The position numbers were made by a program, and so were the translations under genes. Shown here one piece after another: positions 10,434 through 58,136 of a DNA stretch of 64,000 nt. The notes beneath the pieces were generated by a model. That model was not told the origin of the DNA. It saw nothing but the letters and a program-made list of their open reading frames with translations, and searched no databases. The first letter of the stretch is position 1; each line of letters begins with the position of its first letter. Source of the stretch: Terriglobia bacterium (GTDB taxonomy: Bacteria > Acidobacteriota > Terriglobia > 20CM-2-55-15). Location of the stretch: assembly GCA_965218585.1 (NCBI GenBank), contig CBDCLE010000022.1:125526-189525 (forward strand). The letters are read 5' to 3'.

Positions 10434-10476
10434 AATTGTTACTTCGGCGGATTCGGTTAGAATCTTTAGATATCTG

Positions 10477-12176
10477 ATGCGTCTATTCCTGATCGCCGCA
10501 CTGCCTATAGCCTTCATTCTTTACGGCCATGGCCTCGAGGCGCCTTTCTATCTGGACGACAATGGAGTCCTCGAAACTGCAAGAAACGGCGTCGGACTGA
10601 CGGCCACGCGACCGTTGGGATATTTCTCATTTTATTTGAGTGCTTTAACGGCAGATGCGTTCGCGCTTTTGTCGCCTTGGCTGGCCAGTTTTTACTACAG
10701 GTTGGGTAATCTGCTGGTTCACGTCCTGGCGTCGACGGTTCTATTCGGCCTGACGCGCGAATTAACGCGCAACGTTTCTGCCGCGTACGCTGCAGGACTT
10801 TTGTTCTTAGTCCACCCGATTGTCAGTCAGCCGGTCATGTACGTGACCCAGCGTTTTGAGTCGCTTGCGGCACTTTTCATGTTCTCTTCGGCGGCCGCTT
10901 ACGCCAGGTTCAGACGTACCGACGGGCGGCGATGGATTGCAGGCGCCGTAGTTCTCGGTGTCGCTGCAGGAATGACCAAAGAGGTCGCCGTGGTCTTGCC
11001 CGCGTGGATCCTGCTTATGGAGTTCACCTACTTCAGTAAGTTGAAGTGGGACAGGCGTTTCCTGTTTTTGATTCCCGTAGGTGCCCTCCTTGCCTGGCCG
11101 GCCTGGACTGCCTTTCGGGGGTCGGCGAATACGCTGACGTCAATGCCTCTGGGACAGTATTGGTTGACGCAGGGCCTGGTTCTGCTGAAGCACCTCCAAC
11201 TGGTTATCTACCCGGCCGAGCAATTCCTGTTCTACGACTTCCCGATGGCTACCGGATTGTCCTGGCCCCTGGTGGGTGCCTGGTCGGTCGTTTTATCGAT
11301 TCTGGCTACCGGATTTCTATCACTCAACCGACACCCGACCCTAGGATTCGGCATCCTGACGTTCTTTGTCCTGATGCTCCCTGTGACGCTGTTGCCGTTG
11401 CCGGATCTGTTCTTCGAACACCGGGTTTACGGGGCGTTCGGCGGATTTGCCATCGCACTAGGCTCTTTTGTATCGATTCGACGGCGAAGGTTGATTGTGG
11501 CGATCGGAGTGGTGATAGTAGTCGCTTTAGGGATTCGGACTTTCGAACGCACTGGCGAGTGGAATGACGAAGTAGCCTTTTTTGAAGCTCACAGGCTCCG
11601 CTTTCCAGACGAACCACGCGTCTTGGCCTCCCTTGCGGTCAGCTACTACAACACGGGCGACGTTGTCCGTGCCCAAGAAACGATGGGGCAAGCACGGCTT
11701 CACGAAGGTCGATTTAACGCGTATTACTCGAAGAGCGGTCGTGTCGATATAGCGGCGAACCTTATTTCGTTTGCGGCGACGAATGAAGACTACGAAGGAG
11801 CAGGAAGGGAAGTCAGCCGCTCGCTCTCCATCCATCCGAACCACGCATCCTGGTGACAGCAGGGATCTATTATTTGGATGTCGATCAGCCGGAAAACGCC
11901 TTGGCAGCCTTCCGGCAACTAACAGAATTGGAACCGTCGGGAATCTCGGGCTGGTCCGGTCTCCGAGAGGCGAACGCGAGACTTGGAAATACGGAAGCGG
12001 CCGAAGAAGCTCTCGTTCGGCTTTCAGCGCTCAGAGACGAACAGCTAGCCCGTTCGGATCAACGATGGCGCATATCAGACCAGCACGGGGCTGCGGTGAT
12101 TTTCATCATTCTTGCCGCCGGTCTTGGTTCGACTCTTGTCGCTCTGCGGTGGGTCTGGGTGTCGGTGAGACAGTGA
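10477..12176 (+). pseudogene. TMTC-like GT-C membrane glycosyltransferase/TPR protein, copy 1, frameshifted near 11845
   Basis: FYLDD, RPL, NLLVH, LFLVHP, KE, EHRVY motifs; ORFs 10477..11856 and 11853..12176 together align to intact copy 2. Confidence 0.7.
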
Positions 12177-12243
12177 GCCCAATGGAATACGGATTGCCAC
12201 AACGAGGAGGCGGCGTGAGGCGGTGGGTCGGAGGTGCAGCCTG

Positions 12244-13962
12244 ATGCGTCTCTTCTTGATTGCTGCACTCCCTATTGCCTTCATTCTCTACGGCCATGGT
12301 CTCGAAGCGCCTTTCTATCTCGACGACAACACAGTCCTGGAAACTGCAAGAAACGGGATCGGATTAACGGGCACTCGGCCGTTGGGATATTTCTCGTTTT
12401 ATTTGAGTGCATTAATGGCAGACGCGTTCGCGTTTTTGTCGCCTTGGCTGCCCAGCTTTTACTACAGGTTGGGTAATCTGCTGGTTCACGTCCTGGCGTC
12501 CACGGTTCTGTTCGGCCTGACGCGGGAATTGACGCGCAACGTTTCAGCCGCCTACACCGCGGGTTTTTTATTCTTAGTCCACCCGATCGTCAGTCAGCCG
12601 GTCATGTACGTGACCCAGCGATTCGAGTCGCTTGCGGCGCTTTTCATGTTTTCTTCGGCCGCCGCTTACGCCAGGTTCAGGAGTACCGGCGGGCGGCGAT
12701 GGATTGTGGGGGCCGTAGTCCTTGGTATCGCTGCGGGAATGACCAAGGAGATTGCGGTCGTCTTGCCCGCGTGGATCCTCCTCATGGAGTTCACCTGCTT
12801 CAGTAAGTTGAAGTGGGACAGGCGCTTCCTGTTTCTGATTCCCGTGGGGGCCCTCCTCGCCTGGCCGGCCTGGACAGCCTTTCGAGGCTCTGCGAATACG
12901 CTGACGTCCATACCCCTGGGGCAGTACTGGTCGACGCAAGGCCTGGTTCTGCTGAAACACCTCCAACTGGTTATCTATCCGGCCGAGCAATTCCTGTTCT
13001 ATGATTTCCCGATGGCTACCGGATTGTCCTGGCCGCTGGTGGGTGCCTGGTCGGTGGTTTTGTCGCTTCTGGCTACAGGATTTCTACTACTCAACCGATA
13101 TTCAACTATAGGGTTTGGCATCCTGACGTTCTTTGTCCTGTTGCTCCCTGTAACGCTGTTGCCGTTGCCGGATTTGTTCTTTGAACACAGGGTTTACGGT
13201 GCGTTCGGCGGACTCGCCATGGCGATCGGATCGCTGGTGGCCTTGCGCCCACGGCCCCTGGTCGCGGTCATGACCCTCGCTTTGATGGTCGGATTGGGCG
13301 TGCGGACGTTCGAGCGAAGTGCAGAATGGAACTCGGAAATAAGGTTCTTTGAGGCCCATAGAGAACGCTTTCCGAATCATCCCCACGCGCTGTCCTTTCT
13401 CGCGCTGCAATACGGAACGACCGGACAGATTCTGAGATCGATAGAAGTACTCGAACAGGCTCAACGAAACATTGGTCGTTTCAACGAGTACTATTCGGAG
13501 CCGGGCCGTCTTACGGTAGCACTCAATCTGGTGACCGCCCAGATCGCGATGGGTGACCTGGAGGCGGCCGGTGAAGCGCTGGAGCAGGTCCGGGACGTCG
13601 GTTCGGACGAGCCTGCGTTTCAACAGATGCAGGGCAACTGGTTTCTGGCCTCAGATGAGCCCGAGTTGGCTATCGAGGCCTTTCGGAGCCTGAACGAACT
13701 GGACCCGGAATCCCTCGCAGGATGGCGGGGACTCCAGATGGCCTATTTGCGACTCGAACGGCCGGACGAAGCTGCTCTGGCCGAAGATCGGTTGCAAGAG
13801 CGCCTGGATGTGCAGGACGCGCGTAATCAGGAGCGCTGGTTTATACCCGTGCGGTACGCGTCGCATGTAACGTTCGGAATTTTGTTGGTGGGGTTTGCTG
13901 TGACTTTTGTTTCATTGAAGTTCGTTTGGTCTGTTGCACGACAGGGATGGTCCGATGTCTGA
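12244..13962 (+). CDS. TMTC-like GT-C membrane glycosyltransferase/TPR protein, copy 2
   Basis: Same motifs, multiple TM helices, TPR-like repeats and a C-terminal TM helix. Confidence 0.75.
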   Translation: MRLFLIAALPIAFILYGHGLEAPFYLDDNTVLETARNGIGLTGTRPLGYFSFYLSALMADAFAFLSPWLPSFYYRLGNLLVHVLASTVLFGLTRELTRNVSAAYTAGFLFLVHPIVSQPVMYVTQRFESLAALFMFSSAAAYARFRSTGGRRWIVGAVVLGIAAGMTKEIAVVLPAWILLMEFTCFSKLKWDRRFLFLIPVGALLAWPAWTAFRGSANTLTSIPLGQYWSTQGLVLLKHLQLVIYPAEQFLFYDFPMATGLSWPLVGAWSVVLSLLATGFLLLNRYSTIGFGILTFFVLLLPVTLLPLPDLFFEHRVYGAFGGLAMAIGSLVALRPRPLVAVMTLALMVGLGVRTFERSAEWNSEIRFFEAHRERFPNHPHALSFLALQYGTTGQILRSIEVLEQAQRNIGRFNEYYSEPGRLTVALNLVTAQIAMGDLEAAGEALEQVRDVGSDEPAFQQMQGNWFLASDEPELAIEAFRSLNELDPESLAGWRGLQMAYLRLERPDEAALAEDRLQERLDVQDARNQERWFIPVRYASHVTFGILLVGFAVTFVSLKFVWSVARQGWSDV

Positions 13963-16900
13963 TCGAGCTGTAGTGCGTGCCTGGCAGCACGCGTTTCCGG
14001 CGGGTTAAAGTCCCGCTCGGCCCGAGGCCACGGGTCGATATCCAATAAGTGGGGGTAATGCCTCACTGGCCGAAGTGTAGGCGGGTATGCAAATGCCTAA
14101 ACGGGCACGAAGGCGAAAGCCGGATACGGCCAAGACAGAGCTGGATCCACCTACGGAAACTTTGGAGGGCAGGGCGCCCACCGCGAGGTGGGGTCTGAAG
14201 GGCATGAGGAGAACCACCGGGTCGTAATCGACGGGAGCGATCCCGAGGATGAACCGGTCGGCCAAAGATGGGGAATGGTCGAGCCCGCACTATGGGGGCG
14301 AAGGCACATTGGTTCCCCCCCATCGCACCAAGGTGTGTGCGGGCGACACGGTGGAGAAGAGACACGAGTGACCCAGGGAGGCCTGGTATTGTCCGGGCGG
14401 AAGGTAAGGTCGAGATGGTGTGGCACCCGCAGACGAAAGGGCGGGCAACGGAGAAGACAAACATCGACCTAGAGCCCCGCAAGGTAGGTGCGGATATAAG
14501 CGAGAGCGAAGTTCCGGCCGACGCGGTGCCAGGAATCGGATCAGGGAATAGTACTCAGGAACGAGACACCGAACATAAGATCTCGGATCGTTGCTTCAAG
14601 CAGCGGCGCTGGCGGGTTCAAAAGGCCCGTTGGAGGGGGAAGTCCCTGTACTCAGTTGTGATTGTGCGAGCGAGGGAAAGGCGGAGGTATCGTGACCTTG
14701 GACAGTTCCCTTAGTGAAAGACCCAAACGCGATTCGGACGAAGCCGCCGCCCGTCACCACACAGCGACATTGGAAAGCAAACAGGGAAAGAAGCGAAAGG
14801 TCCACTCGCTGATCGACAAGGTGTTTAGTCGCAAGAATCTGGAGTTGGCCTGGGAGAAGGTGAAGCGGAACCGAGGTAGTGCGGGCATCGACAAGGTGAC
14901 CGTTGAGCAGTTTGAAACGCGCAAGGAGGAATATCTGGCCTTGTTGCATGGGAGTAACGTAAAAGTTGTGTTTCGTGATTTCCAGTTGAGAGAGAATGAT
15001 AGATTCGTCGTCCGGGCTGTGGGAACTGTGCGGACGCCGGAGGTGTTCCAAGGGCCTGTGGAAATCATCAAGAAGAAGCCGCCGAAGGCGACCGATTCCC
15101 CCGATTTCCATAGGCCCGGCAGTTTCCACAGCCCCCGTCGCCCGCTGAAATTGAAGCGGGCTCCAGTTCACGCTGGAGCCCTAGACCTGAGTCATCAGTT
15201 ATTCAGTTATGGAGTTGAACCCAATGTCTACAGATCCGAATGAAAGCGTACCATCAGAACAGATTTCTGAATCCACAAAAACACAGATCCAGACCCTGCT
15301 GGCCTCCGGGCTGGCCGATCTGAGCCTGCGCGAGGTACTGGGGACCCTGTTGTCGGGCCTCAGTGTGGCCGAACGGGACCTGCATCTTGAACACCGCCCC
15401 GACGACCGTCCCAATGGTTTTTACGATCGCTCCCTCCAAGTGGGCAGCGTTCCGATCGATATCCGTGTCCCTCGAACCCGTAACGGGGATTTCCGTCCCG
15501 CGAACCTACCATCCCCGTATCAGCGCGGCTACCCTGAAGAAGTCGAGTCCATCTTGCTGGGACTGCTGGCCTCATCCCGTTCGGTCAATGCGGCCCGGGA
15601 GGCGCTTCAGAAGATGGGCCTGTCCGGGTCCCAACAGGATCTGGAACGGGTGGCGTCGGGCCTGATCGAAGAACTCGATCTTGGCAACAGCCGGCCACTG
15701 GACACGGATCTGCTGGCCCTATTCGTGGATGGCAAGTACGTCGAACTCCGCGACGGCGACCGGCTGCGTCCGGCCTGTATCTACCTGGTGGTGGGTCTAG
15801 GCCGCGACGGCAAGAAGCGTGTCCTGGCCTGCATTGCCAAACCCGGCCGCGAGAATCTCGAAGACTGGAAGGGGGTTCTCCGCTCTCTGATCGAGCGCGG
15901 TCTCCGACGCGTCATGATCTTCGTCCAGGACGATTTCTCCGGCCTTCTCAAGGTCAGCGAAGGCTTCTTTCCCAATGCTGATATCCAGCTCTGTACCGTC
16001 CACATGCAGCGCAATGCTAAGAGCCATCTCTCCAAATCCGACGCCGCCGAGTTTCAGCAACGCTTCCGTGCCATCAAGTCCTCCTGGTGTGAGGATGTCG
16101 GCAACCAAGGGTTCGAGGAACTCTGTGACCGCTTCGCCCAGCACTATCCCTCCTGGATCGCGGGGCTCCGCAAGAAACGGACTCACTATCTCGCCTTCCT
16201 CAAGTATCCCGACCTCATGCGCAAATCGTTTTCCACCACCAACCTCGTCGAGGCCGTCAACGGACAACTGGAAATTATGCGCCGCAATTCGGGCGGCTAC
16301 TTTCACTCCGAAGACACCCTCAAGTTCAAACTCGGCTTGGCCGTCTCTCACCTCCACAACGGCCGTTGGAAATCTCCGGCCACTTCCATCCATTCCGCTC
16401 TTCATCAGCTCAACGCCATGTTCCAATCCCGCTTTGAGGAGGACTTATGATCCCCTCCTCAAACACAACTTTCTTGACAAGAGCCTGTTGCATCAAAGAC
16501 TGCGAGATGGCAGTTATCGCCCCAAGCCGGTTAAGCGAGTCGAGATCGGGAAGTCCGACGGAGGAGTGCGAAAGCTGGGGATACCGGCCGTGATGGATCG
16601 GGTATGTCAGCAGGCACTGGTCCAGCGGATGGAACCGATCTTCGAGCCGCTGTTTCTGGACTGCTCATTCGGGTATCGCAAGGGGCGTTCGCCTCACGAT
16701 GCGATGCGGAAAGTATGGGTAGAGCTGGGCGAGGGAGACCTATGGGTAGTTGATGCCGACTTGCGGCAGTTCTTCGACACGATTGACCAGGAGAAGCTCC
16801 TCGACTTAATTGCCGAAGAGATCAGCGACGGCCGAGTACTGGGACTGATCCGGGTCATCCTGGGTTCGGGGGTGTTGGACGGAGGTTGCTGGCAACCCAC

Positions 16901-18444
16901 GCGGACGGGAGTTCCCCAAGGGGGAGTGGCCAGTCCGTTGTGGTCAAACATCTTTCTGACGCCGTTTGACCGTGAGATGACCCGACAAGGTTACAGACTC
17001 ACACGCTGGGCGGACGACTTCGTGGTGGTCTGCAGGACACCGTCGGAAGCCCGGCAGGCACTCGCATGTGCAGAGCGGTTTCTCTGGGAGGCACTTGGAG
17101 TTCGGCTCCATCCGAAGAAGACGCGGATTGTACACGTCCGACAGGGCTTCGAGTTCTTGGGGTACAAGGTGAAGCAAGGGAAAGGCCTGCGCCTGTCCGA
17201 TACACAGAGGCAGGGTCGCGGAATGCATCCCTATAACCTGTACGCCATTCCACGGGAAAAGTCGGTGGAGAGGTTCCGGACGCAAATCCGACACCTCTCG
17301 CGCCGAAAGGCTCCCCTCACGCTGGGCGAAGTCATCGACCAGCTCAACCCAGTGATTCGTGGTTGGGGGAACTACTACCGCAAAGCGCGGGTGCGCCGAC
17401 TCTTTAACCAGTTGGACCGTTGGATCGAGCGCCGTATCCACTCGTTTCTCGCGAAACGGTGGCGCAATACGATGTGGCGCCGCTATCCGGCACGACGACT
17501 GATTCGGGAGTTTGGTTTGGTCCGACTGACGCATCTGATCCCCGGTCTTGTGGACCGGTGACTTCGAGCGAGGAGCAACTGAGGAAAGCGGCTTGCGGGA
17601 AAACTGCACGAGCCGTTTGATTGAGCGGACGGTGGAAGGGCGGCTCTGCCCGACCACTTTCGACTCTACACTGGTTCTGAACAGGGAAAAAATCCTGGTG
17701 GATCTGCTCGTGCGTTCTCTGGAAGGCGACGATCTCGCGATGTTCGGGGCCGCTTCCTCTGTCGAGGCCACGCGTTTGTTCGAGCAACATCGGCCGGATC
17801 TGGTTATCGTTGATCCCGCGGTTCCTGAAGGGTTCGAGTTCATGGATCAGGTCCGGACCGGATTAAAGCCGGCCCGGATTGTGGCGCTTGTCGATACCGA
17901 TGAGATCCGTGAACGTGTAGCCGAAGCGGGAGTGGAGCGAACCGTAGAACAATCGGCCGGCCTGGACGGACTGGTAGATGCGATACGGTCTTCCCTCAGT
18001 GGCGGTGTGGCTGTTCAACTCGGCGGGGACAGCACACGGATTCTCGTCGTCGATGACGAGGAGGGAATGAGGACGACATTGGTCGATTACCTGGGTAGCT
18101 GCGGGTATGCTGCGTTTGGTGCGAGGGACGGCAGAGAGGGAGTCGAGTTTGTCATCGAAGATCCTTCGGTGCGTCTTGTGTTATTGGATGTAAGCATGCC
18201 TCGCATGGGTGGCATTGAGGCGTTGCGACAGATCATGATGCTACCGACCCACCCGGACGTGATCATGATGACGGCTGTGACAGACAGAGAAATCGCCAAG
18301 CAGACTCTGAATGCAGGAGCCTTCGACTACGTCTTAAAGCCCTTTGATCTTGACTCCATGGAATCCTCGATCGTCGCTTGTCTCAGCTACTCCGACTATC
18401 ACAAGCGGCCCTGGTGGAAGCGTCTTGTCCGCCGAAGCGCCTGA
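13955..18444 (+). CDS. Tandem-receiver response regulator interrupted by group II intron (exons 13955..13972 and 17671..18444)
   Basis: Joined exons read MSDRAV|LVLNREKILVDLL...; second REC domain ILVVDDE, LLDVSMP, KPF. Confidence 0.8.
14950..16485 (+). mobile_element. IS256-family element A, copy 1 (1536 bp)
   Basis: 8-bp TSD TGTTGCAT (14942-14949, 16486-16493); imperfect IRs sharing AAAGTTGTGTTT. Confidence 0.93.
15209..16450 (+). CDS. IS256-family (Mutator-type) transposase
   Basis: NGFYDR, VPRTR.GDF, VDG, QLCTVH, TTNLVEAVN. Confidence 0.93.
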   Translation: MELNPMSTDPNESVPSEQISESTKTQIQTLLASGLADLSLREVLGTLLSGLSVAERDLHLEHRPDDRPNGFYDRSLQVGSVPIDIRVPRTRNGDFRPANLPSPYQRGYPEEVESILLGLLASSRSVNAAREALQKMGLSGSQQDLERVASGLIEELDLGNSRPLDTDLLALFVDGKYVELRDGDRLRPACIYLVVGLGRDGKKRVLACIAKPGRENLEDWKGVLRSLIERGLRRVMIFVQDDFSGLLKVSEGFFPNADIQLCTVHMQRNAKSHLSKSDAAEFQQRFRAIKSSWCEDVGNQGFEELCDRFAQHYPSWIAGLRKKRTHYLAFLKYPDLMRKSFSTTNLVEAVNGQLEIMRRNSGGYFHSEDTLKFKLGLAVSHLHNGRWKSPATSIHSALHQLNAMFQSRFEEDL

Positions 18445-19836: not shown

Positions 19837-19840
19837 ATTA

Positions 19841-19924
19841 ATTGGGGTCAGAGCCCTATTTCCCCAATTCCACGCTACATTTATTTCCGTTGAGAAATAG
19901 GGGAAATAGGGCTCTGACCCCAAT
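19841..19924. repeat. 25-bp perfect inverted repeat (REP-like element)
   Basis: ATTGGGGTCAGAGCCCTATTTCCCC (19841-19865) and its reverse complement (19900-19924). Confidence 0.85.
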
Positions 19925-19959
19925 AAAAAAAGAGGCCTGGGATTGTCTCCCAGGCCTTT
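19925..19959 (-). terminator. Rho-independent terminator of the pilin gene
   Basis: AGGCCTGGGA-TTGTC-TCCCAGGCCT stem with adjacent A run (U tail on minus strand). Confidence 0.75.
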
Positions 19960-20835: not shown

Positions 20836-22087
20836 ACTCTAAGTGACTGAAAACACGACCTTCATGTTTCTATGTGTCCACCAATTCTGTAGACGGGCCA
20901 TTCCGGGGTCAACAACTTTGTGAGTATTACTATAGGAATTATAGGATCGGTTCGGCGCAAGATCTGCATCGAGGGCCCAAACTTTCGCCCGTGTTTTGGG
21001 TCAATTTACGGTGAAGAAAAGCCGGTTCGACGTTCCGCCATTTGGATCCGTCACAGCGATCGGGAGCACGCCGGAAGAGCCGACGAGAATGGAAGGCACG
21101 GAAATCACGATCTGCGTGGACGTCACGCTCGTGGGTGTCAGAACGGCTGTACCAAGCAGGACCGTGCTGGCCGAAGTGAAGTTGGAGCCGGTTAAGGTCA
21201 TGTTGAACGTGGCACTTCCCGCCGCGATAGACGAGGGCGAAAGCAACGCGATATTCGGGACCGCGTTCGTCTGGGGAGTAGAACCCACTGTAAATCCAAG
21301 AGTTTGACTCGAACCGCCCCCCGGTTGCGCGTTCTCCATGGTCATTGTCCAGGAACCGGAACAGATGACGGTAAACTCGAAGACCATCTGGTTGGAATTG
21401 AGCAGAGTTCCCGTTTCTCCATCGAAGTCCTCGGGTGTCATACATGCCGGGAGACCGAAGAACGCGGTTGTCGCAGAGTTGAAATTGGCTCCGTTCACGA
21501 TCAACAGCGCCTTGAACTTCTGCTCTGTTTCGCCGTCGAGGCGGAAAGGCCTGCCATCTTCGAAAGACGTTGGGGCAAAACTCAGGGATTCGAGGACCGG
21601 AATCGGGTTCACAACCATCAGCGGCAGTGTCTCCGACGGCGGGACTCGAGGAACGACCGGCTCAGGATTCTTGACCGTGATGCGCTTGGCCTGGCCGTCG
21701 GGTATCGACTTTGCAGGGATCAAGGCTGTCAGCGTCGTGCTGTTGACGAATTCGGTCGCTATCTCCTCGTCTTCAATCAGGACAGTCGCACCCTTGACGA
21801 AACTGAAGCCGACTACCGTCAGCGCCACTGGTGGTGAACTTTCGTCGGGTCGGGCAATGATCAGGTCGGGAGAGATCGACCGAAGTCCGGCGATCGGGTT
21901 CAGAACACCGATCGATAGCTCATTCGACGGTCCGGCAGTAGGCGATGGGTTGAGGATGGAAATCGCCAGATTCCCCGCTGTAGAGTCGAAAGTGGTCGGG
22001 CAGAGCCGCCCTTCCACCGTCCGCTCAATCAAACGGCTCGTGCAGTTTTCCCGCAAGCCGCTTTCCTCAGTTGCTCCTCGCTCGAAG

Positions 22088-23059
22088 TCACCGGTCCACA
22101 AGACCGGGGATCAGATGCGTCAGTCGGACCAAACCAAACTCCCGAATCAGTCGTCGTGCCGGATAGCGGCGCCACATCGTATTGCGCCACCGTTTCGCGA
22201 GAAACGAGTGGATACGGCGCTCGATCCAACGGTCCAACTGGTTAAAGAGTCGGCGCACCCGCGCTTTGCGGTAGTAGTTCCCCCAACCACGTGTGAGTCT
22301 GTAACCTTGTCGGGTCATCTCACGGTCAAACGGCGTCAGAAAGATGTTTGACCACAACGGACTGGCCACTCCCCCTTGGGGAACTCCCGTCCGCGTGGGT
22401 TGCCAGCAACCTCCGTCCAACACCCCCGAACCCAGGATGACCCGGATCAGTCCCAGTACTCGGCCGTCGCTGATCTCTTCGGCAATTAAGTCGAGGAGCT
22501 TCTCCTGGTCAATCGTGTCGAAGAACTGCCGCAAGTCGGCATCAACTACCCATAGGTCTCCCTCGCCCAGCTCTACCCATACTTTCCGCATCGCATCGTG
22601 AGGCGAACGCCCCTTGCGATACCCGAATGAGCAGTCCAGAAACAGCGGCTCGAAGATCGGTTCCATCCGCTGGACCAGTGCCTGCTGACATACTCGATCC
22701 ATCACGGCCGGTATCCCCAGCTTTCGCACTCCTCCGTCGGACTTCCCGATCTCGACTCGCTTAACCGGCTTGGGGCGATAACTGCCATCTCGCAGTCTTT
22801 GATGCAACAAGGCCAGATATTCCTCCTTGCGCGTTTCAAACTGCTCAACGGTCACCTTGTCGATGCCCGCACTACCTCGGTTCCGCTTCACCTTCTCCCA
22901 GGCCAACTCCAGATTCTTGCGACTAAACACCTTGTCGATCAGCGAGTGGACCTTTCGCTTCTTTCCCTGTTTGCTTTCCAATGTCGCTGTGTGGTGACGG
23001 GCGGCGGCTTCGTCCGAATCGCGTTTGGGTCTTTCACTAAGGGAACTGTCCAAGGTCAC
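22088..23059 (-). pseudogene. ltrA: Intron reverse transcriptase with 354-bp in-frame deletion removing WADD
   Basis: YRLTR|GWGNYY junction; lacks the equivalent of copy-1 17006..17359. Confidence 0.9.
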
Positions 23060-23559
23060 GATACCTCCGCCTTTCCCTCGCTCGCACAATCACAACTGAG
23101 TACAGGGACTTCCCCCTCCAACGGGCCTTTTGAACCCGCCAGCGCCGCTGCTTGAAGCAACGATCCGAGACCTTATGTTCGGTGTCTCGTTCCTGAGTAC
23201 TATTCCCTGATCCGATTCCTGGCACCGCGTCGGCCGGAAAGTTGTGTGCGTCAAGTTCTGCAAAAAGTATTTCCAAAAAATTCAGTTCTTGAGTGTCGAT
23301 CGCCGTCGGGCCTGTGGGAATGTGGGAATGCTGAGCGTTTTTGGCGAAGCTTTTCCAAGCCTCAGAGGGAATCCGCGCCTTTTGGCGGATTTCCTCTGAG
23401 GCGTCATTTCCATCAGGCCTCTGCGTTTCTTTCTTTTTTGGTTCTTTTTCTTTCTTTCGTCCCCTCGAAAGTTTTCCACAGCGATTGTTCGCTCCAGGAT
23501 GCTCTGTAATCGCCGATCGACATCCGAGTCGATCATTGGGTCGGCCCGTTGGGACGCGT

Positions 23560-24762
23560 TTAGGCAGCCGGCGTCTGACGGTGCCAGTCCCTTTTGTGTT
23601 CCTTCAACAGGTCCATGTTCAAGTAGCGGATCGCTTCGATCCAGTTCTCGTGCGTTTCGGTGGTCAGCGCCCGAATCAAACGCAGACAGCTGGCTGCGTT
23701 GGGGAATATCCGCACCACGCGCGTTCGCCGTTTGATCTCTTCGTTGAGCCGTTCCAGCATATTGGTGGATTTCATGTGTTTGTGATGCTGAAGCGGCAGC
23801 GTGTAGAAGCTTAGTGTCTCGTCGATATTGTCTTCGACCCAGTCGCAGAGTTTGGAATATTTCTGCCCCCACTTGCTCAACCATGTCGCCAGGTCCTGCC
23901 GCACTTCCTGGAGGTCCCGCCGGTCGTAGAGCCAACGCAGTTCCTGGAGACAATCGTCATCGGCTTTGCGCGGCAGATAATCCAATGCGTTTCTCAGAAA
24001 GTGGACGTAGCAGCGTTGCCAGATCGCTTCGGGCAGGACTTCTGCGATGGCTTTCTTCAACCCGGCATGATCGTCGGTCACCACGAACTCCACGCCGCAC
24101 AAGCCGCGTTGTTTCAAACTCAGTAACAGTTCCCGCCAACTGGTCGTGCTTTCCCGTTCCGCCAGTTCCACCGCCAACACACCGCGCCTCCCGTCCCAGT
24201 TGATTCCGATCGCCACCAGAACTGCTCGGCTCCGGATGACCCCGTCTTCGCGCACCTTCTCGTAGCGCGCATCCAGAATCAGGTACGGGTATTCTTCCTC
24301 CAATGCTCGCGTCGCAAACTTTTTCAGCTCCGTGTCCAGTGTCTTATTAATCCGGCTGATCGTGCTGGCCGAAAACGAATGCCCGCATAATTCTTCGGTG
24401 ATGGCCTTGACCTTGCGCGTCGACACGCCCTGCACGTACATCTCCGCCAAGCTGGCCACCAAAGCTTTCTCGCTGCGTTGGTAGCGTTCAAACACTTCCG
24501 TGCTGAACCGCCCGGCCCGGTCCTGCGGCACGCGCAGCTCCAGCTTGCCCACCCGCGTGACCAGGTCCCGCCCGTAATAGCCACTCCGATATCCGGTCCG
24601 CCCCGCCGTTCGTTCACTCTTGGCCGCGGCCATAACCTGCTCCATCTCCCCCTCGAGAATTTCCTGAACCACCTCCTGCACGACGCTTTTCAGCAGATCC
24701 TTTTCCTCTCCTAACAGTTCTTTCCAATCCACTCCCTTTCGCTTAATCTTAGTTCGGGCCAT
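23560..24762 (-). CDS. IS256-family transposase (element B)
   Basis: LRVPQDR, GVSTRKV, LDARYEKVR, WQRCYVHF, STNMLERLNEEIKRRT. Confidence 0.95.
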   Translation of the reverse strand: MARTKIKRKGVDWKELLGEEKDLLKSVVQEVVQEILEGEMEQVMAAAKSERTAGRTGYRSGYYGRDLVTRVGKLELRVPQDRAGRFSTEVFERYQRSEKALVASLAEMYVQGVSTRKVKAITEELCGHSFSASTISRINKTLDTELKKFATRALEEEYPYLILDARYEKVREDGVIRSRAVLVAIGINWDGRRGVLAVELAERESTTSWRELLLSLKQRGLCGVEFVVTDDHAGLKKAIAEVLPEAIWQRCYVHFLRNALDYLPRKADDDCLQELRWLYDRRDLQEVRQDLATWLSKWGQKYSKLCDWVEDNIDETLSFYTLPLQHHKHMKSTNMLERLNEEIKRRTRVVRIFPNAASCLRLIRALTTETHENWIEAIRYLNMDLLKEHKRDWHRQTPAA

Positions 24763-24778
24763 CGGTTCATCTCCTTCG

Positions 24779-26314
24779 GGCTCTTGTCAAGAAAGTTGTG
24801 TTTGAGGAGGGGATCATAAGTCCTCCTCAAAGCGGGATTGGAACATGGCGTTGAGCTGATGAAGAGCGGAATGGATGGAAGTGGCCGGAGATTTCCAACG
24901 GCCGTTGTGGAGGTGAGAGACGGCCAAGCCGAGTTTGAACTTGAGGGTGTCTTCGGAGTGAAAGTAGCCGCCCGAATTGCGGCGCATAATTTCCAGTTGT
25001 CCGTTGACGGCCTCGACGAGGTTGGTGGTGGAAAACGATTTGCGCATGAGGTCGGGATACTTGAGGAAGGCGAGATAGTGAGTCCGTTTCTTGCGGAGCC
25101 CCGCGATCCAGGAGGGATAGTGCTGGGCGAAGCGGTCACAGAGTTCCTCGAACCCTTGGTTGCCGACATCCTCACACCAGGAGGACTTGATGGCACGGAA
25201 GCGTTGCTGAAACTCGGCGGCGTCGGATTTGGAGAGATGGCTCTTAGCATTGCGCTGCATGTGGACGGTACAGAGCTGGATATCAGCATTGGGAAAGAAG
25301 CCTTCGCTGACCTTGAGAAGGCCGGAGAAATCGTCCTGGACGAAGATCATGACGCGTCGGAGACCGCGCTCGATCAGAGAGCGGAGAACCCCCTTCCAGT
25401 CTTCGAGATTCTCGCGGCCGGGTTTGGCAATGCAGGCCAGGACACGCTTCTTGCCGTCGCGGCCTAGACCCACCACCAGGTAGATACAGGCCGGACGCAG
25501 CCGGTCGCCGTCGCGGAGTTCGACGTACTTGCCATCCACGAATAGGGCCAGCAGATCCGTGTCCAGTGGCCGGCTGTTGCCAAGATCGAGTTCTTCGATC
25601 AGGCCCGACGCCACCCGTTCCAGATCCTGTTGGGACCCGGACAGGCCCATCTTCTGAAGCGCCTCCCGGGCCGCATTGACCGAACGGGATGAGGCCAGCA
25701 GTCCCAGCAAGATGGACTCGACTTCTTCAGGGTAGCCGCGCTGATACGGGGATGGTAGGTTCGCGGGACGGAAATCCCCGTTACGGGTTCGAGGGACACG
25801 GATATCGATCGGAACGCTGCCCACTTGGAGGGAGCGATCGTAAAAACCATTGGGACGGTCGTCGGGGCGGTGTTCAAGATGCAGGTCCCGTTCGGCCACA
25901 CTGAGGCCCGACAACAGGGTCCCCAGTACCTCGCGCAGGCTCAGATCGGCCAGCCCGGAGGCCAGCAGGGTCTGGATCTGTGTTTTTGTGGATTCAGAAA
26001 TCTGTTCTGATGGTACGCTTTCATTCGGATCTGTAGACATTGGGTTCAACTCCATAACTGAATAACTGATGACTCAGGTCTAGGGCTCCAGCGTGAACTG
26101 GAGCCCGCTTCAATTTCAGCGGGCGACGGGGGCTGTGGAAACTGCCGGGCCTATGGAAATCGGGGGAATCGGTCGCCTTCGGCGGCTTCTTCTTGATGAT
26201 TTCCACAGGCCCTTGGAACACCTCCGGCGTCCGCACAGTTCCCACAGCCCGGACGACGAATCTATCATTCTCTCTCAACTGGAAATCACGAAACACAACT
26301 TTTACGTTACTCCC
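24779..26314 (-). mobile_element. IS256-family element A, copy 2 (1536 bp)
   Basis: Same as 14950..16485; 8-bp TSD CGAAGGAG. Confidence 0.93.
24814..26055 (-). CDS. IS256-family transposase (element A)
   Basis: Protein identical to 15209..16450. Confidence 0.93.
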   Translation of the reverse strand: MELNPMSTDPNESVPSEQISESTKTQIQTLLASGLADLSLREVLGTLLSGLSVAERDLHLEHRPDDRPNGFYDRSLQVGSVPIDIRVPRTRNGDFRPANLPSPYQRGYPEEVESILLGLLASSRSVNAAREALQKMGLSGSQQDLERVASGLIEELDLGNSRPLDTDLLALFVDGKYVELRDGDRLRPACIYLVVGLGRDGKKRVLACIAKPGRENLEDWKGVLRSLIERGLRRVMIFVQDDFSGLLKVSEGFFPNADIQLCTVHMQRNAKSHLSKSDAAEFQQRFRAIKSSWCEDVGNQGFEELCDRFAQHYPSWIAGLRKKRTHYLAFLKYPDLMRKSFSTTNLVEAVNGQLEIMRRNSGGYFHSEDTLKFKLGLAVSHLHNGRWKSPATSIHSALHQLNAMFQSRFEEDL

Positions 26315-55112: not shown

Positions 55113-56090
55113 ATGGCCCCGCTCCGTTTCCGTCTTTGGATTTACCCGTCGCTGGTTGTTCTCATATATGTTCTGTGGACCGGCTATATGGCCATCTCTG
55201 ATAACTGGCATCTGTTCAAGGAATTTTGGACCGTGTCGGTCACCATGGCCTTTGGCTCGTTTATAGCCGGAGCCACGCCTCAAGGTGGGGCCACTGTAGC
55301 CTTTCCCGTTTTTACCAAGGTTCTTCAATTTCCCTCAAGTGATGCCCGGACATTTGGACTCCTGATCCAGGCTATAGGCATGACGATGGCGTCGGTGCTT
55401 ATCGTTGCGCGGCGCATCCCGATCTTGGGGCACATCGTTGGCTGGACTTCGCTGGGCGGAGGTATCGGGATCGTGATTGGCGTTTATGCCTTTCAGATCC
55501 CGCCGCCCTTTCCGAGGATCCTCTTTACGTTTGTGGCCACGGCTTTCGGCGTCGCTATGGCCCTCTCGCGGTGGGGCCTGAAATGGTCTCCGCTCAGGGA
55601 TATACACAACTGGAACAACAGTCACCGCTCTATCTTCGTGATTATTGGCTTTTTTGGGGGAGCCTTTTCTGCCAACACGGGGGCCGGCACCGACATGCTG
55701 GCTTTTATCGTGCTAACCCTGGCGTTTGGCATCGACGAAAAAATCAGCACTCCGACGTCCGTCGTGATCATGGGCATCAACTCGTTGATTGGCGCTTTCA
55801 TGTATGGGGCTGTCCTGCAAGATGTGGGTATTGCCTCGAGCTATTGGCTGGTTGCGGCCCCGATTGTAATCCTGGGGGCACCCCTGGGTGCTTTCGTGGT
55901 TTCGATCGTCAAGAGAGATCATCTCATCCTGTTCATCCTGTTCTTAGTCGGTGTCGAACTGACGACAACTATCTGGCTGATACCGTTCACTCCGACCATA
56001 ACTACAGTCGTCGTTATTGCCGTAGCCATCTGTATCGTGTGGTTCTCGGGGATGCTCTACTACCGTCACAGGGTCATTACCCATACCTGA
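55113..56090 (+). CDS. TauE/SafE sulfite-exporter family membrane protein
   Basis: GSFIAGATPQGG..AFPVFT, A.TFGL.IQ..GM, PTSVV.M, GAPLGA. Confidence 0.8.
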   Translation: MAPLRFRLWIYPSLVVLIYVLWTGYMAISDNWHLFKEFWTVSVTMAFGSFIAGATPQGGATVAFPVFTKVLQFPSSDARTFGLLIQAIGMTMASVLIVARRIPILGHIVGWTSLGGGIGIVIGVYAFQIPPPFPRILFTFVATAFGVAMALSRWGLKWSPLRDIHNWNNSHRSIFVIIGFFGGAFSANTGAGTDMLAFIVLTLAFGIDEKISTPTSVVIMGINSLIGAFMYGAVLQDVGIASSYWLVAAPIVILGAPLGAFVVSIVKRDHLILFILFLVGVELTTTIWLIPFTPTITTVVVIAVAICIVWFSGMLYYRHRVITHT

Positions 56091-57969
56091 CGTGTCGAGC
56101 ACTCTTGTTCCAGATGTGGAATGAATTTCTGGCCAACCTCCTCATCGTAAAGCAGACAAAAAAGGGTCGTTTCCGAGCGACCCTTTTCTGCGCCTTTGCG
56201 ATGGCCCAAAATCGATTAACGAACGTATGATCAGCGACAATCAAAACTCCCGGCCGTATTGCCTCATTTAAAAATGTTACCGAACTGAGGGTTGTTGCCT
56301 CATCGAAAATGTTACCGAACGACCGGTCAAACGGGAGAGTTCTTCCCGCCGTCGAGGCTGTGGGGCGACCGCCTTTTCCACAGCCCCCGTCGCCCGCAGA
56401 TGCTGAAGCCAGGCGGACCCGATCCAGTTCGAGCCACTCGCCATCGAAAGTCTCCAGAATCTGACGCCGCCATTCGCGCACGCGCCGCTGCAGGGTCCGT
56501 AACTGACCGTTGGGGTAACGTCCCGGGCGCCGCTGCTGAAGCTCAAGCAACAGCGACTTTGATGTTCGCCCGGGATCGGATTCAAGCCATGACCGCATCT
56601 CCTCCCAGACGCCGTCGAACGGGTCCGGGCGAGTACGCCAGGTGTGGGGCACAGGTTGTTTCCGTGTTTTGCGATACCGACGCGTGATTCGTTGCTCGAA
56701 GCCGGGATCGGGGAGTTCCGCCTCAATCGGGGCTCGGTCTGCATCTGCGTCGCAGTTCGGGGACACAAGGGCGGCGCGCACGATGTCGTCCGTTAGCGTG
56801 GGAGAGGCCAGTTCCTTCGCATGTCTCCAGAATGCATCCTGGAGTTTCTCAAGCTGTCGTAGGAGATCGACCGGATCCGAACGTTCATAAATCGCAGCAA
56901 GGCGAACGCGAACCTCCGGGTCGAGCGCATCCGAATTCGAGAGCCGTTGATAGGGTGTTTGCGCGATATCGTAGCGTTTCGTCACCCGGGATCCATCGCG
57001 AGTCTTCGTCGTGAGCTTCATGGACGGCTGGAAGAAGTTCACGTAGAGCCGGACCACTCGGTAGAGCTCGGCAAGCTGCCTGTATGCCAGTGAGCCTTCG
57101 TAGCGGTCGTAGCCGACCAATTGGCGGACGATCGAGCCGTTCTTCTGTTCGACGAAGCACTGGTCGTTCTTCCGGCGCGCCCGGCCTCGGGTGAATTGAA
57201 TCGTTTCACGCTCGCAGTAGGCGAGGAGTCCGTAGTTCATGAACTCGGAACCGTTATCCGTGTCCAGGCCGACAAGCTGAAACGGAAGGATCTGCCGTGC
57301 CGTCGTGAGCGCCTGCAGAATGTCCGCCTCCGTACGCCGTAGCAACGCCAGACATTCGGTCCAGCCGGTCGCCACGTCGGTCAGTACCAGGGTGTGGAGG
57401 AAAGGGCCTTCCGAGTTCCCGCCGCAGTGTGCAACCAAGTCCGCTTCCATGAATCCCGGCCGCGTGTCCGCCCAGTCGGCGAATGTGCGAATCGGAACGC
57501 GGTGTTTGAGTAACTGTCCGGACTTGGTGGTGGTCTTGCCGTGCGGTCGATGATCGAATCGGAATTGACGGAAGATCCGATCAGCCGTGGCGGCGCTCAG
57601 CTCAAGCAGATCCGCCCGCGTTTTATCAGACAATGACAGATGCCCGTGACGCTCCATGGTCGGGATCAGCTCCGGCAGAAACGGAACGAGCCGTTTGCCA
57701 CAGACATCATTGACTGTGCGCCAGGCCGCGATCAGGGCGGCCTGCACCGCGGGGCCGTATCGACGGACCCGGCCGCGCGGTTGCCGTCGGGGCCGTTCGC
57801 CCCTCAGAATGTCGTTCAGAAGCCGTGTCGCGTGCTTCCGATGGAACCCGGTCGATTCAAGGAACTCATCCAGGATTCGCTTCTTCTCCGGTCGCGCCGC
57901 ATTCTTGTAGCGAACCGCCGTTCGTAGAGCTAATTCTCGCCTTGCCGCAACAGTCATGTGTGTCCTCAC
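56077..57969 (-). CDS. Integrase-core (rve) DDE transposase; frame reads through the IR
   Basis: PGFMEADLVAHCG, DTDNGSEF, KNDQCFVEQKN, VRQLVGY.RY; tail WRTRPDPF, LRTLQRRV. Confidence 0.85.
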   Translation of the reverse strand: MRTHMTVAARRELALRTAVRYKNAARPEKKRILDEFLESTGFHRKHATRLLNDILRGERPRRQPRGRVRRYGPAVQAALIAAWRTVNDVCGKRLVPFLPELIPTMERHGHLSLSDKTRADLLELSAATADRIFRQFRFDHRPHGKTTTKSGQLLKHRVPIRTFADWADTRPGFMEADLVAHCGGNSEGPFLHTLVLTDVATGWTECLALLRRTEADILQALTTARQILPFQLVGLDTDNGSEFMNYGLLAYCERETIQFTRGRARRKNDQCFVEQKNGSIVRQLVGYDRYEGSLAYRQLAELYRVVRLYVNFFQPSMKLTTKTRDGSRVTKRYDIAQTPYQRLSNSDALDPEVRVRLAAIYERSDPVDLLRQLEKLQDAFWRHAKELASPTLTDDIVRAALVSPNCDADADRAPIEAELPDPGFEQRITRRYRKTRKQPVPHTWRTRPDPFDGVWEEMRSWLESDPGRTSKSLLLELQQRRPGRYPNGQLRTLQRRVREWRRQILETFDGEWLELDRVRLASASAGDGGCGKGGRPTASTAGRTLPFDRSFGNIFDEATTLSSVTFLNEAIRPGVLIVADHTFVNRFWAIAKAQKRVARKRPFFVCFTMRRLARNSFHIWNKSARHVRYG

Positions 57970-58056
57970 TTCCCACCTCCGTTCTCATAGAGTTGGGTAA
58001 CATTTCTAATGAGGCAACAACCCTCAGTTCGGTAACATTTTCAATGAGTCAATGCG
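56255..58056 (-). mobile_element. rve/ISNCY-like insertion sequence
   Basis: About 62-bp terminal IRs, each with two TTG(C/A)CTCAT..AAATGTTACC units; no clear TSD. Confidence 0.82.
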
Positions 58057-58136
58057 AGAAGGAATTCTGATTGACGTTGGACACCGGCGGCCAATGCCGG
58101 TCGCCCGCCAACCAAAGATATGAGAGGAGACACACT

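Follow-up and report, generated by a model that had tools for sequence, protein, structure and literature searches.

The window analysed here is a 64,000-nt stretch of a contig from a Terriglobia bacterium, and it holds three kinds of mobile element that carry related versions of one motif (Table 1). Two of them, IS-A and IS-B, encode mutator-type DDE transposases (PF00872) and are assigned on this basis to the IS256 family. The first copy of IS-A is inserted in the reverse transcriptase gene of a group II intron, with RVT_1 and GIIM domains directly after position 16486. The genome contains six identical copies of IS-A that end at the same bases, and the second copy in the window separates the main part of IS-B from its first 95 nt, which lie at 26315-26409. 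An RNA-library contig joins position 24770 to 26315 through 8 shared bases and corresponds to IS-B without IS-A, while others join 23230 to 26410 through 9 shared bases and correspond to the empty site of IS-B, an element present in four copies in the genome. An ISC-like copy at C10:31630, considered as a second empty site, was merely truncated and uninformative. The third element is of rve type; the rve domain match of its open reading frame scored 27.7 bits, under the Pfam cut-off of 32.6. Elements are heavily nested in this genome.

Table 1. Positions of the elements, of the motif and its parts, and of adjoining features in the window (P1 to P3, helices of the motif; CM, covariance model).
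Feature	Position	Strand	Description
IS-A, copy 1	14950..16485	+	IS256-family element; transposase 15209-16450; Transposase_mut 1.5e-53
IS-A motif	15005..15134	+	5' leader of transposase, same sense; CM 92.3 bits
IS-A motif, leader	15005-15013	+	(YMG)3
IS-A motif, P1	15014-15029 with 15119-15134	+	
IS-A motif, P2	15032-15048	+	hairpin
IS-A motif, P3	15052-15066 with 15103-15117	+	
IS-B, main part	23240..24778	-	IS256-family element; transposase 23560-24762; Transposase_mut 3.3e-146
Acquired block of IS-B	23266..23559	+	about 270-295 nt, terminal repeat to transposase stop
IS-B motif	23300..23419	+	downstream of transposase, antisense to it; CM 110.1 bits
IS-B motif, leader	23300-23308	+	(YMG)3
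IS-B motif, P1	23308-23322 with 23405-23419	+	
IS-B motif, P2	23323-23357	+	
IS-B motif, P3	23359-23376 with 23385-23402	+	
Mirror repeat	23426..23458	+	homopyrimidine, UUUCUUUCUUUUUU-GG-UUCUUUUUCUUUCUUUC; downstream of IS-B motif
Fourth half-box	23470-23481		AGUUUUCCACAG; after mirror repeat
IS-A, copy 2	24779-26314	-	inverted, 100% identical to copy 1; within IS-B
Motif in IS-A copy 2	26130..26259	-	
rve-type element	56228..58083	-	ends from copy alignment; open reading frame 56077-57969 (-)
Subterminal repeats of rve-type element	56268-56320 / 57992-58044		53 nt
Cut-down motif	56346..56397	+	leader CCGCCGUCG; P1 only, 56355-56365 with 56374-56385

The unit that is homologous in IS-A, IS-B and, in cut-down form, the rve-type element consists of a (Y-M-G)x3 leader on the 5' side of a three-helix junction. 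The leader is single-stranded and the junction core behind it measures 105-160 nt. On the + strand of both IS256-type elements the fold runs from an outer stem (P1) through a small hairpin (P2) to an inner stem (P3). The first-pass annotation had described this common layout, and all the sequences that it quoted were found where it had placed them, including the mirrored IS-A motif near 26130, which belongs to the second, inverted copy of the element. Folding energies were -73.7 kcal/mol for the + strand of IS-A (z = -5.5) and -75.5 kcal/mol for that of IS-B (z = -8.5), and 0/200 shuffles equalled either value; the opposite strand of IS-B folded more weakly (-58.4 kcal/mol). A single box recurs in each of the three helices, GUGGGAA pairing with UUUCCAC, and it includes a conserved pair that is G.U (or A-U). 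In the alignment the arms of the motif read GGSCUGUGG ... CCACAGSCC, and paired single-base length changes are present in both stem arms. Across loci the loops measure anything from about 4 nt to over 60 nt, and the P3 of IS-A bears a 36-nt conserved terminal insert. Of 55 non-redundant sequences, 43-45 have G at leader positions -7, -4 and -1; when pairing of the leader with the loops, the junction or the 3' tail was checked by eye, a 6-bp match appeared in IS-A only, with no covariation elsewhere. The outer stem is followed by a pyrimidine-rich tail (7 of its first 9 positions are 63-75% Y), often reading GGCCUCC. The string TTCCAAG had been taken for the end of the small hairpin; it runs from the 3' strand of that hairpin over the junction A to the G that opens the inner stem. 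The conserved unit itself is wider than had been proposed: its fold stands, and the 9-nt 5' leader and, in IS-B, the downstream mirror repeat have to be added.

In the cut-down motif of the rve-type element the 3' flank is identical to that of IS-A. The 23 bases that had been reported as shared by these two elements are indeed identical, and the similarity extends to 35 nt at 89%; the 23-base stretch is found at 12 more places in the genome, apart from the six IS-A copies. The cut-down form is present in 8 copies, and a form 37 nt longer, with P2 and a P3 stub, in 4 others. The short form is a 37-nt internal deletion of the fuller one, and since the deleted form has 8 copies and the fuller one 4, the module is dispensable for transposition as such. 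Folded alone, the short form was not significant (z = -1.4, 16/200 shuffles equal).

A covariance model (CM R1) was built from eight versions of the motif in the source genome, and covariation was analysed on 72 distinct rows and 41 pairs, with 500 shuffles as control. Paired cells amounted to 91.7% in the 72 rows against 77.0 +/- 0.4% in shuffles. Changes on both sides were found at 33 of the 41 pairs and in 331 cells, compared with 84 +/- 7 cells in shuffles, and the observed covariation measures were reached in 0/500 shuffles. In a second control, sliding the 3' partner by 1-3 columns made pairing drop to 38-53%. Seven inner P1 pairs covary though absent from the model used to build the alignment (one pair: CG 34, AU 18, GC 8). 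The copies are kin through transposition, so locus counts exaggerate the independent support. Within the helices G.U outnumbers A.C by 195 to 27, indicating that the inward-reading strand is the folding strand, that is, the strand read 5' to 3' inward from the nearest element end. A coding origin of the conservation was considered and rejected. Anchor distances across the motif are spread 22/22/23 over the residues modulo 3, so that no reading frame is conserved, and among copies of 94-100% identity the reverse-strand frames are broken by stops and single-base length changes. Frames are open on one strand or the other in 59 and 67 of 68 copies, which is attributable to composition.

In the source genome CM R1 detected 21 full copies at E <= 6e-15, together with the reduced forms of the rve-type element (4 + 8). 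All 21 sit in IS-A, IS-B, IS21-type or IS3-type elements or their remnants, a divergent copy on C11 apart. The model matched 31 of 60 relatives at E <= 0.01, with 23 of 34 matched within the same family, and in a phylum-wide sample at E <= 1e-4 it matched 26 of 150 genomes (24/148 without G105 and G201, both flagged unpublished). Copies per carrier genome reach at least 58. A pattern scan of public records returned at least 109 stretches; the model confirmed 15 of 80 fetched loci, 12 of them in records labelled as Acidobacteriota lineages, and the other 65 were chance matches, so a pattern this weak says little on occurrence outside the phylum. Acidobacteriota are probably the host phylum of the module. 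A blastn search of a plasmid collection in distant mode, with both motifs as query, found nothing.

The model retrieves the motif in IS21, IS3, IS256, IS110-adjacent and integrase contexts, and the neighbouring genes encode IstB_IS21, Transposase_mut, rve+HTH_21, DEDD_Tnp_IS110, Phage_integrase, DDE_Tnp_Tn3 and DUF772 domains. The association with mobile elements holds genome-wide; in distant genomes, 8 loci have no mobile-element gene within 1.5 kb, and one of these (L066) keeps an IS3-type upstream flank. Subtypes of the motif cut across transposase families. The subtype with a long P3 occurs in IS256 (L003), IS21 (L007, L057, L062) and IS3 (L050, L058) elements, at L049 beside an IS110 gene and at L065 in an rve element, and the subtype with a mirror tract in IS256, IS21 and IS3. 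The module lies in a short non-coding stretch just inside one terminal repeat. Where a mobile-element gene was in reach, the motif was downstream of it and facing it at 22 of 26 loci, upstream in the same sense at 2 (IS-A and L049) and otherwise arranged at the remaining 2. An inward orientation, upstream or downstream of the transposase, had been put forward from the window and applies to the 22 + 2 loci. Mapped element ends in the source genome lie 64, 69, 88 and 128 nt away from the start of the outer stem. The range of 60-100 bp inside a terminal repeat proposed earlier is correct for IS-A (64 nt) and IS-B (69 nt) and fails for the rve-type element, where the distance from 56228 is 128 nt and the outer stem starts 36 nt inside the 53-nt subterminal repeat.

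The mirror repeat that follows the IS-B motif has one strand made entirely of pyrimidines and is symmetric about a short centre, a composition of H-DNA type as far as sequence alone can tell. Such a tract is present at 15 of 60 non-redundant loci, in elements of the IS256, IS21 and IS3 families and adjacent to an IS110 gene; the variant at L049 has a wider C spacing in both arms. It is not coding, because the T runs differ by single bases and in-frame stops occur. Beyond the tract, sequence is conserved across IS256, IS21 and IS3, yet RNAalifold found no common fold there. An IS110-type element has one copy inserted in the middle of the mirror repeat at C9, and the repeat was rejected as its target because the other six copies lie in unrelated flanks. 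Two relatives of IS-B, L216 (75% amino acid identity) and L218 (71%, broken), have the terminal 23-25 nt in common with it and lack the block between terminal repeat and transposase stop, the distance from stop to element end being about 51 nt in L216 compared with 320 nt in IS-B. The absence of the whole block of about 270 nt from a 75%-identical relative shows that it is exchanged cargo, and the module has been acquired by unrelated transposase families. The first-pass annotation had suggested that different IS families have in common a structured RNA or ssDNA module, or else an element that hitch-hikes. Sharing and structure are borne out by the matches of the model in several families and by covariation exceeding both controls, and exchange by the subtypes that cross families and the IS-B relative without the block.

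Transcription was considered from sequencing libraries and from sequence signals. Contigs were taken from four runs, and those of two sponge metatranscriptome libraries cover the IS-B motif. The RNA-library contigs span the whole of IS-B at a depth of 2-7 and the motif at 3.1-4.5, with single contigs spanning 23301-23474 and 23240-23436; contigs of this kind cannot show strand, transcript ends or level, and the libraries may contain DNA. A sigma-70 scan found no inward promoter on the + strand of IS-A or IS-B. The profile upstream of the motif contained an A/T-rich stretch from -31 to -11, with no fixed -10 box, no positioned TAnnnT and no position above 0.27 bits of information. At 24/60 loci the 20 nt next to the outer stem contain a U-rich run, compared with 20/60 for a control window partly overlapping the same tract, and a terminator scan left the motif uncalled in both IS-A and IS-B. 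These two results indicate that simple intrinsic termination is not general.

Our preferred reading, which we hold tentatively and consider slightly more apt to fail than to stand, is that of an uncatalogued, horizontally exchanged cargo module of mobile elements that acts in cis as RNA on inward transcripts. The RNA would act on transcripts that enter or start at the element end in which it lies. A host factor reading the three identical boxes probably binds it, and inward transcripts would be stopped, processed or stabilised. Transposase expression might thereby be shielded from outside transcription, which would be antisense at a right end and sense at a left end, as in IS-A. The conserved boxes would be superfluous for an ordinary terminator or insulator, which counts against this reading, and in IS-A a transcription block would also strike the element's own transposase mRNA if the promoter lies in the end.

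The strand bias is also compatible with action as DNA, since folded single-stranded DNA also tolerates G.T pairs. The module could then fold in the strand exposed as a replication fork enters near the end, during copy-out-paste-in transposition or circle formation, and serve as a priming or protein-loading site. The IS3, IS21, IS256 and IS110 families move via circular copy-out intermediates, so that the identified host families would suit such a role, and integrase islands also circularise. The inward-reading strand would be the lagging-strand template for a fork entering that end. A strict strand bias, a fixed orientation to the end and no detectable promoter all fit a DNA-level signal, and homopurine/homopyrimidine mirror repeats like the adjacent one are classical triplex formers in DNA. 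We nevertheless consider this explanation unlikely. Conservation of G.U pairs in every one of the three helices is more what one expects of RNA, and the donor-end asymmetry published for IS3-family elements would leave the opposite strand exposed at a right end. The module is also found at a left end, in IS-A, the rve-type element multiplies without P2 and P3, and a primer near the point of fork entry would copy little of the element. That the motif is instead a site for a DNA-binding protein in double-stranded form (six TGTGGRAA sites), an outward-facing promoter (TTCCCA on the - strand as -35, the A/T box as -10), or both, is very improbable. The promoter scan does call TTCCCA-18-TATCAT on the - strand of IS-A with 9/12 matches, and A at -11 (24), T at -12 (22) and T at -15 (23 of 55 loci) agree weakly with a - strand TAnnAT lying 16 nt from the box; a right-end outward promoter might drive the transposase across a circle junction. 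The -10-like signal is, however, weak (40-44% per position). A site array predicts neither covariation at stem positions outside the boxes nor arms that change length in pairs, its fixed spacing would be destroyed by loops of such variable length, and the systematic difference between forward and reverse sites (G versus A) is explained only by the fold.

Selfish spread would account for part of the same observations. The block may have no role for the host element, spreading through recombination between copies that are nested or adjacent, or by some insertion route of its own, and surviving only where an IS tolerates extra DNA, in the short non-coding ends. Presence or absence of the block among close relatives, subtypes common to several families and deletion derivatives that still multiply agree with this, as does the stretch of 35 nt shared by IS-A and the rve-type element, which runs past the fold; the nesting of elements would give many chances of exchange. 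We regard it as quite unlikely, since it leaves unexplained both the near-constant inward orientation and the purifying selection that acts across the phylum on boxes, junction and leader, along with the stem covariation. No consistent target-site duplication flanks the motif, and 0/21 full copies in the source genome are free of an IS or IS remnant, the C11 copy again excepted. Action in trans is distinctly improbable: a small RNA made from the element end could regulate ribosome-binding sites through its CCUCC-like tail or act as a decoy for an RNA-binding protein. The A/T-rich stretch just upstream of the conserved leader and the pyrimidine-rich tail after the outer stem would be suitable for such an RNA, and the three identical boxes, with the copy numbers reached in carrier genomes, for protein titration. 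Against it, scans and upstream profile revealed no positioned promoter, there was no sign of an abundant short transcript, and in IS-A neither a tail nor a terminator precedes the start of the transposase.

Structured RNAs at transposon ends, such as bridge and omega RNAs, recently proved to be working parts of the transposition machinery; the module differs in having no tie to a single enzyme. It crosses IS3, IS21, IS256 and other families while keeping its place and orientation, which suggests a process at the level of the host that is common to many transposons, candidates being transcription entering the element, element replication or a host RNA-binding protein. The module might represent a new class of transposon-borne structured RNA, a portable accessory gene whose junction shows three G.U boxes to a host protein and which would have moved among four or more unrelated transposase families because it improves an element's persistence or control of its own expression; this wider proposal is doubtful. 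Near-identical elements constitute a natural experiment, the module being complete in IS-B, missing from L216 and internally deleted among the two rve variants, and sequence diversity is sufficient to define a family model for annotation. Were the module only a hitch-hiker, it would document the exchange of non-coding cargo between IS families and would explain part of the unannotated conserved non-coding DNA of these soil and sponge bacteria.

No catalogued family matched the motif. With Rfam 15 (4227 models) at gathering thresholds the whole window yielded two tRNAs only, and at E <= 5 the 8 motif-bearing loci gave 6 hits, none on the motif and none to RF01686 or RF01687. A weak BjrC68 match (23.7 bits, cut-off 39) lies just after the IS-A motif and off it. 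Full-text literature searches found no description of the motif. The candidate non-coding RNAs Acido-1, Acido-Lenti-1 and Solibacter-1 come from the same phylum, and Solibacter-1 is likewise multi-copy, with 34 hits in one IS-rich genome; as presented in the relevant parts of the source, they consist of two hairpins or other stems without GUGGGAA/UUUCCAC boxes (PMC2864571). Their published seeds share neither boxes nor layout with the motif, Solibacter-1, which is not in Rfam, having been compared by eye, and identity with them was rejected (PMC2864571). An origin as a MITE is not supported: the outer stem arms do not resemble the terminal repeats of IS-A, IS-B or the rve-type element, and no consistent duplication is seen in the flanks. 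REP/REPIN sequences with a RAYT were discarded as well, the copies being within IS elements and not extragenic; the genome has two Y1_Tnp genes, and the nearest motif, about 3 kb from one of them, is inside an IS21 element.

Strand-specific folds on mobile DNA include single-strand origins and G4-type priming signals, and integron attC sites, whose core boxes R''/R' read RYYYAAC ... GTTRRRY. Like the motif, such sites are strand-specific, covarying and orientation-dependent (for attC, PMC5737381). The motif differs from folded single-stranded DNA sites in lacking RYYYAAC/GTTRRRY boxes, an integron context and a rolling-circle replicon; identity with attC was rejected, as the arms lack the core boxes and no integron integrase was among the neighbours scanned. 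The conserved G.U pairs point more to RNA than to sites of this kind. MRSC motifs such as MRSC-65-2 resemble the motif in being multi-copy, covarying, folded and linked to transposase or integrase genes, and for them too, according to the relevant sections of the source, action as RNA or DNA is ambiguous and protein-binding repeats are possible (PMC11109978). MRSC-65-2 is described there as a single long stem with UYCCGG repeats that spreads as its own element, (PMC11109978), whereas the present motif is a three-helix junction with a leader and has a fixed position and orientation inside autonomous IS of several families. In the IS200 system, art200 and a 5'UTR stem-loop are end-located structured RNAs that limit transposase expression in an Hfq-dependent manner; they belong to one IS family and lie at the 5' end of the transposase (PMC4513863). 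Our motif is exchanged between unrelated families and is mostly located at the 3' end in antisense. The bridge RNA of IS110 and the omega/reRNA of IS200/605 are, like the motif, conserved structured RNAs in a non-coding IS end; in the report that treats them, each occurs together with one recombinase or nuclease family and has variable loops that match target or donor (10.64898/2026.10.21.760802). Identity with such guide RNAs was rejected because the neighbouring domains reveal no exclusive link to one recombinase or nuclease family. The motif accompanies at least five unrelated protein families, and its long P3 insert is conserved across families rather than being specific to each element.

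The sequences quoted in the first-pass annotation were found where it placed them, and the + strand of the IS-A and IS-B motifs folds into the layout that it described, with P1 as the outer stem, P2 as the small hairpin and P3 as the inner stem. The fold reached -73.7 kcal/mol (z = -5.5) for IS-A and -75.5 kcal/mol (z = -8.5) for IS-B, and in neither case was any of 200 shuffles as good; on the opposite strand, the IS-B fold was weaker by 17 kcal/mol. The short form of the rve element, folded by itself, was not significant against shuffles. In a comparison of 69 unique sequences, the motif opens with a leader of three Y-M-G units and a 15-bp P1, which passes without a linker base into P2, 6-10 bp long and variable at its tip. 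A single junction A leads to P3, whose 16 bp are capped by a tip ranging from about 4 to more than 60 nt; two further junction bases, G followed by G or U, precede the return strand of P1. Each of the three helices contains a GUGGGAA box that pairs with UUUCCAC. Within this box the third G pairs with U (43, 35 and 34 times in the three helices), the substitutes being mostly A-U and rarely G-C; leader positions -7, -4 and -1 are G in 43-45 of 55 non-redundant sequences.

Covariation, a check proposed in the first-pass annotation, was present and exceeded both shuffled and shifted-partner controls. It was measured on a model-made alignment of 72 distinct rows with a 41-pair structure, 28 of these pairs being those to which the alignment was fitted and hence favoured. 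Paired cells amounted to 91.7% (77.0 +/- 0.4 in shuffles), pairs with changes on both sides to 33 (20.9 +/- 1.9) and cells with changes on both sides to 331 (84 +/- 7); none of 500 shuffles equalled the observed value on any measure. Shifting the 3' partner by 1-3 columns lowered pairing to 38-53%, and seven inner P1 pairs absent from the model covaried nonetheless. G.U pairs outnumbered A.C pairs 195 to 27, indicating that the strand which folds is that running 5' to 3' from the near end into the element. The motif was rejected as coding sequence: distances between anchors were split 22/22/23 over the residues modulo 3, and the protein-like frames on the IS-B reverse strand were shifted or stopped in copies with 94-100%-identical transposases and in IS3 versions.

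A group II intron, present as two inverted copies, houses both IS256-family elements; immediately after IS-A come RVT_1 and GIIM domains. Genome-wide, IS-A has six identical copies and IS-B four, and the IS-B of the window is split by insertion of IS-A copy 2. The intron copies are interrupted at different sites, one by IS-A alone and the other by IS-B carrying IS-A, and the target duplications appear as 9- and 8-bp overlaps between repeat blocks. Empty sites of both insertions are present in contigs of public runs, where 23230 is joined to 26410 and 24770 to 26315.

Mobile elements, motif sites and neighbouring repeats (window coordinates)
Feature	Coordinates	Description
IS-A copy 1, IS256 family	14950-16485	Transposase_mut 1.5e-53
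IS-A copy 2	24779-26314	perfect inverted repeat of copy 1
IS-B, IS256 family	23240-24778 + 26315-26409	Transposase_mut 3.3e-146
rve element, 1856 bp	56228-58083	weak rve match, 27.7 bits, under Pfam cut-off
Motif, IS-A copy 1	15005-15134	
Motif, IS-A copy 2	26130-26259	
Motif, IS-B	23300-23419	
Motif, rve element	56346-56397	cut-down
Mirror repeat	23426-23458	triplex-type, conserved, 33 nt
Group II intron copies	13970-17670 and 21979-26960	inverted, 100% identical, RVT_1 + GIIM
Inverted repeat, 32 nt	19838-19927	94% complementarity, 26-nt spacer (TTAATTGGGGTCAGAGCCCTATTTCCCCAATT ...); no relation to motif
Direct repeat, 300 nt	10474-10773 and 12241-12540	89% identity, 1767 nt apart
Full motif copies in genome, 21		IS-A x6, IS-B x4, IS21-family element x6, five single versions

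Among four relatives with IS-B transposases at 94-100% identity, the motif was found in all copies checked, one being truncated within it. Two more distant loci, L216 (transposase 75% identical) and L218 (71%, broken), keep the same terminal 23-25 nt. The distance from stop codon to element end is about 51 nt in L216 versus 320 nt in IS-B, indicating that some 270 nt of IS-B were acquired just inside the terminal repeat. Transposase family does not predict motif subtype: a long-P3 subtype with the conserved insert AUCAAGAAGAAG...GCCGAAGGC occurs in IS256, IS21 and IS3 elements, beside an IS110 gene and in an rve element, and a subtype with a homopyrimidine mirror repeat downstream occurs in IS256, IS21 and IS3. 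Homology, fold, covariation and these cross-family subtypes agree on a structured module common to different IS families, as had been proposed. The stretch reported as common to IS-A and the rve element measures 35 nt at 89% identity and extends beyond the fold. A fuller rve form (P1, P2 and a stub of P3) has 4 copies, and the shortened form recognised earlier is a 37-nt deletion of it, with 8 copies including that of the window. The rve element can multiply without the full fold.

The mirror repeat is also found at 14 other loci (e.g. L045, L052 and L111); downstream lie a fourth half-box, UUUCCACAG, and a conserved non-coding stretch, GCGCCAGGAUCGCCCAGGAnCGACGAUCG, for which no common fold was detectable. 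At G000:C9:158650-160453, an IS110-family element (7 genome copies), represented by a head-to-head pair of partial copies, is inserted exactly at the GG centre of the mirror repeat that follows a motif remnant; its other copies are flanked by unrelated sequence. Fragments of another motif (GTTTCCACAGCCCC, TTTTCCACGG) abut the outside of one rve-element copy (G000:C25:4250-4320), indicating that the element inserted into or next to an older remnant that carries the motif. An IS21 element with a motif copy adjoins a tandem pair of c-di-GMP-I-type riboswitch aptamers (L038:2320-2592; G000:C10, ~119970-120240), one scoring 55.4 bits, above the gathering score, and the GGC variant 56.4 bits against a cut-off of 59.

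Copies were searched with nhmmer and with a covariance model for which eight distinct versions of the motif in this genome served as input. Besides the 21 full copies, the covariance model matched the 4 + 8 reduced rve-element copies, one copy that is decayed and one that is divergent; the other 4 of its 39 matches were reverse-strand echoes of the palindromic inner stem. The divergent copy, at G000:C11:129282-129398 in a stretch that is single-copy in the genome, has the boxes GUGGGCG/CGUCCAC, like some distant genomes. Model matches at E <= 0.01 were found in 31 of 60 relatives, among them 23 of the 34 that belong to the same family, and several relatives have at least 58 candidates each. 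Across an evenly drawn phylum sample, 26 of 150 genomes had a match at E <= 1e-4, a tally including the unpublished genomes G105 and G201 (24 of 148 without them), which enter no other result. A pattern scan of named public records gave mostly noise; 15 model-confirmed loci were among the matches listed, 12 in records bearing the label Terriglobia, Ca. Acidoferrales, Blastocatellia, Thermoanaerobaculia or Acidobacteriota and one each in those labelled Verrucomicrobia, Ca. Xenobia and Ca. Desantisbacteria, which points to Acidobacteriota as the probable phylum. G003, a different species within the genus, has at least 58 motif matches and at least 23 IS-B transposase copies listed at 100% identity (e.g. 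G003:C1:8821-10020). Sequence comparison suggests that IS-B may have spread recently between species of the genus.

A mobile-element gene is within reach at 26 loci. At 22 of these the motif lies downstream of the last gene and faces it; at two (IS-A and a locus containing an IS110 gene) it is upstream in the same sense, and two have another arrangement, these loci being related through shared elements and not independent. Inward pointing, whether upstream or downstream of the transposase, thus describes 22 + 2 of them. The proposed distance of 60-100 bp inside the end fitted 64, 69 and 88 nt and failed at 128 nt, measured in this genome from the outer-stem start to mapped ends.

Any role must account for a fold specific to one strand, for a leader and three identical boxes conserved throughout the phylum, for unrelated host elements, for a fixed inward orientation beside one end, and for transposition that is possible without the motif. 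Of five readings, we rank first, at somewhat short of an even chance, a putative cis-acting RNA. Transcripts would run inward from the element end through the motif and would be read there by a host factor, and could as a result be stopped, processed or stabilised. Right-end antisense and left-end sense placements are both compatible with such an RNA. Plain termination does not seem to be general: a terminator scan did not call the motif in IS-A or IS-B, and a U-rich run within 20 nt of the outer stem was seen at 24 of 60 loci, compared with 20 of 60 in a control window partly covering the same tract.

A single-stranded DNA signal used while the element is copied would agree with the families that host the motif and with the lack of a detected promoter, but is a poorer match for the G.U pairs and for the geometry; we consider it unlikely and place it second. 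Exchange and deletions are consistent with a selfish hitch-hiker, which leaves orientation and purifying selection unaccounted for and, ranked third, seems improbable. Fourth comes a small RNA acting in trans, which we hold to be quite improbable. Covariation and variable spacing contradict an array of duplex-DNA sites or an outward promoter, the least credible at fifth.

The search of Rfam 15 called for in the first-pass annotation matched no family. The acidobacterial motifs Acido-1, Acido-Lenti-1 and Solibacter-1 (Weinberg et al. 2010, PMC2864571) differ from the motif, Solibacter-1 having been compared by eye. No description was found in the accessible parts of the literature, though the motif may be included, unnamed, in a recent preprint that clusters intergenic motifs of prokaryotes. 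The module is real and well supported, and apparently undescribed. Its closest counterparts are the 'mobile/repeat sequence candidates' listed by ncRNA surveys, together with those regulatory or guide RNAs that are specific to single IS families; unlike both, it is embedded cargo, carried by several transposase families at a constant position and orientation.
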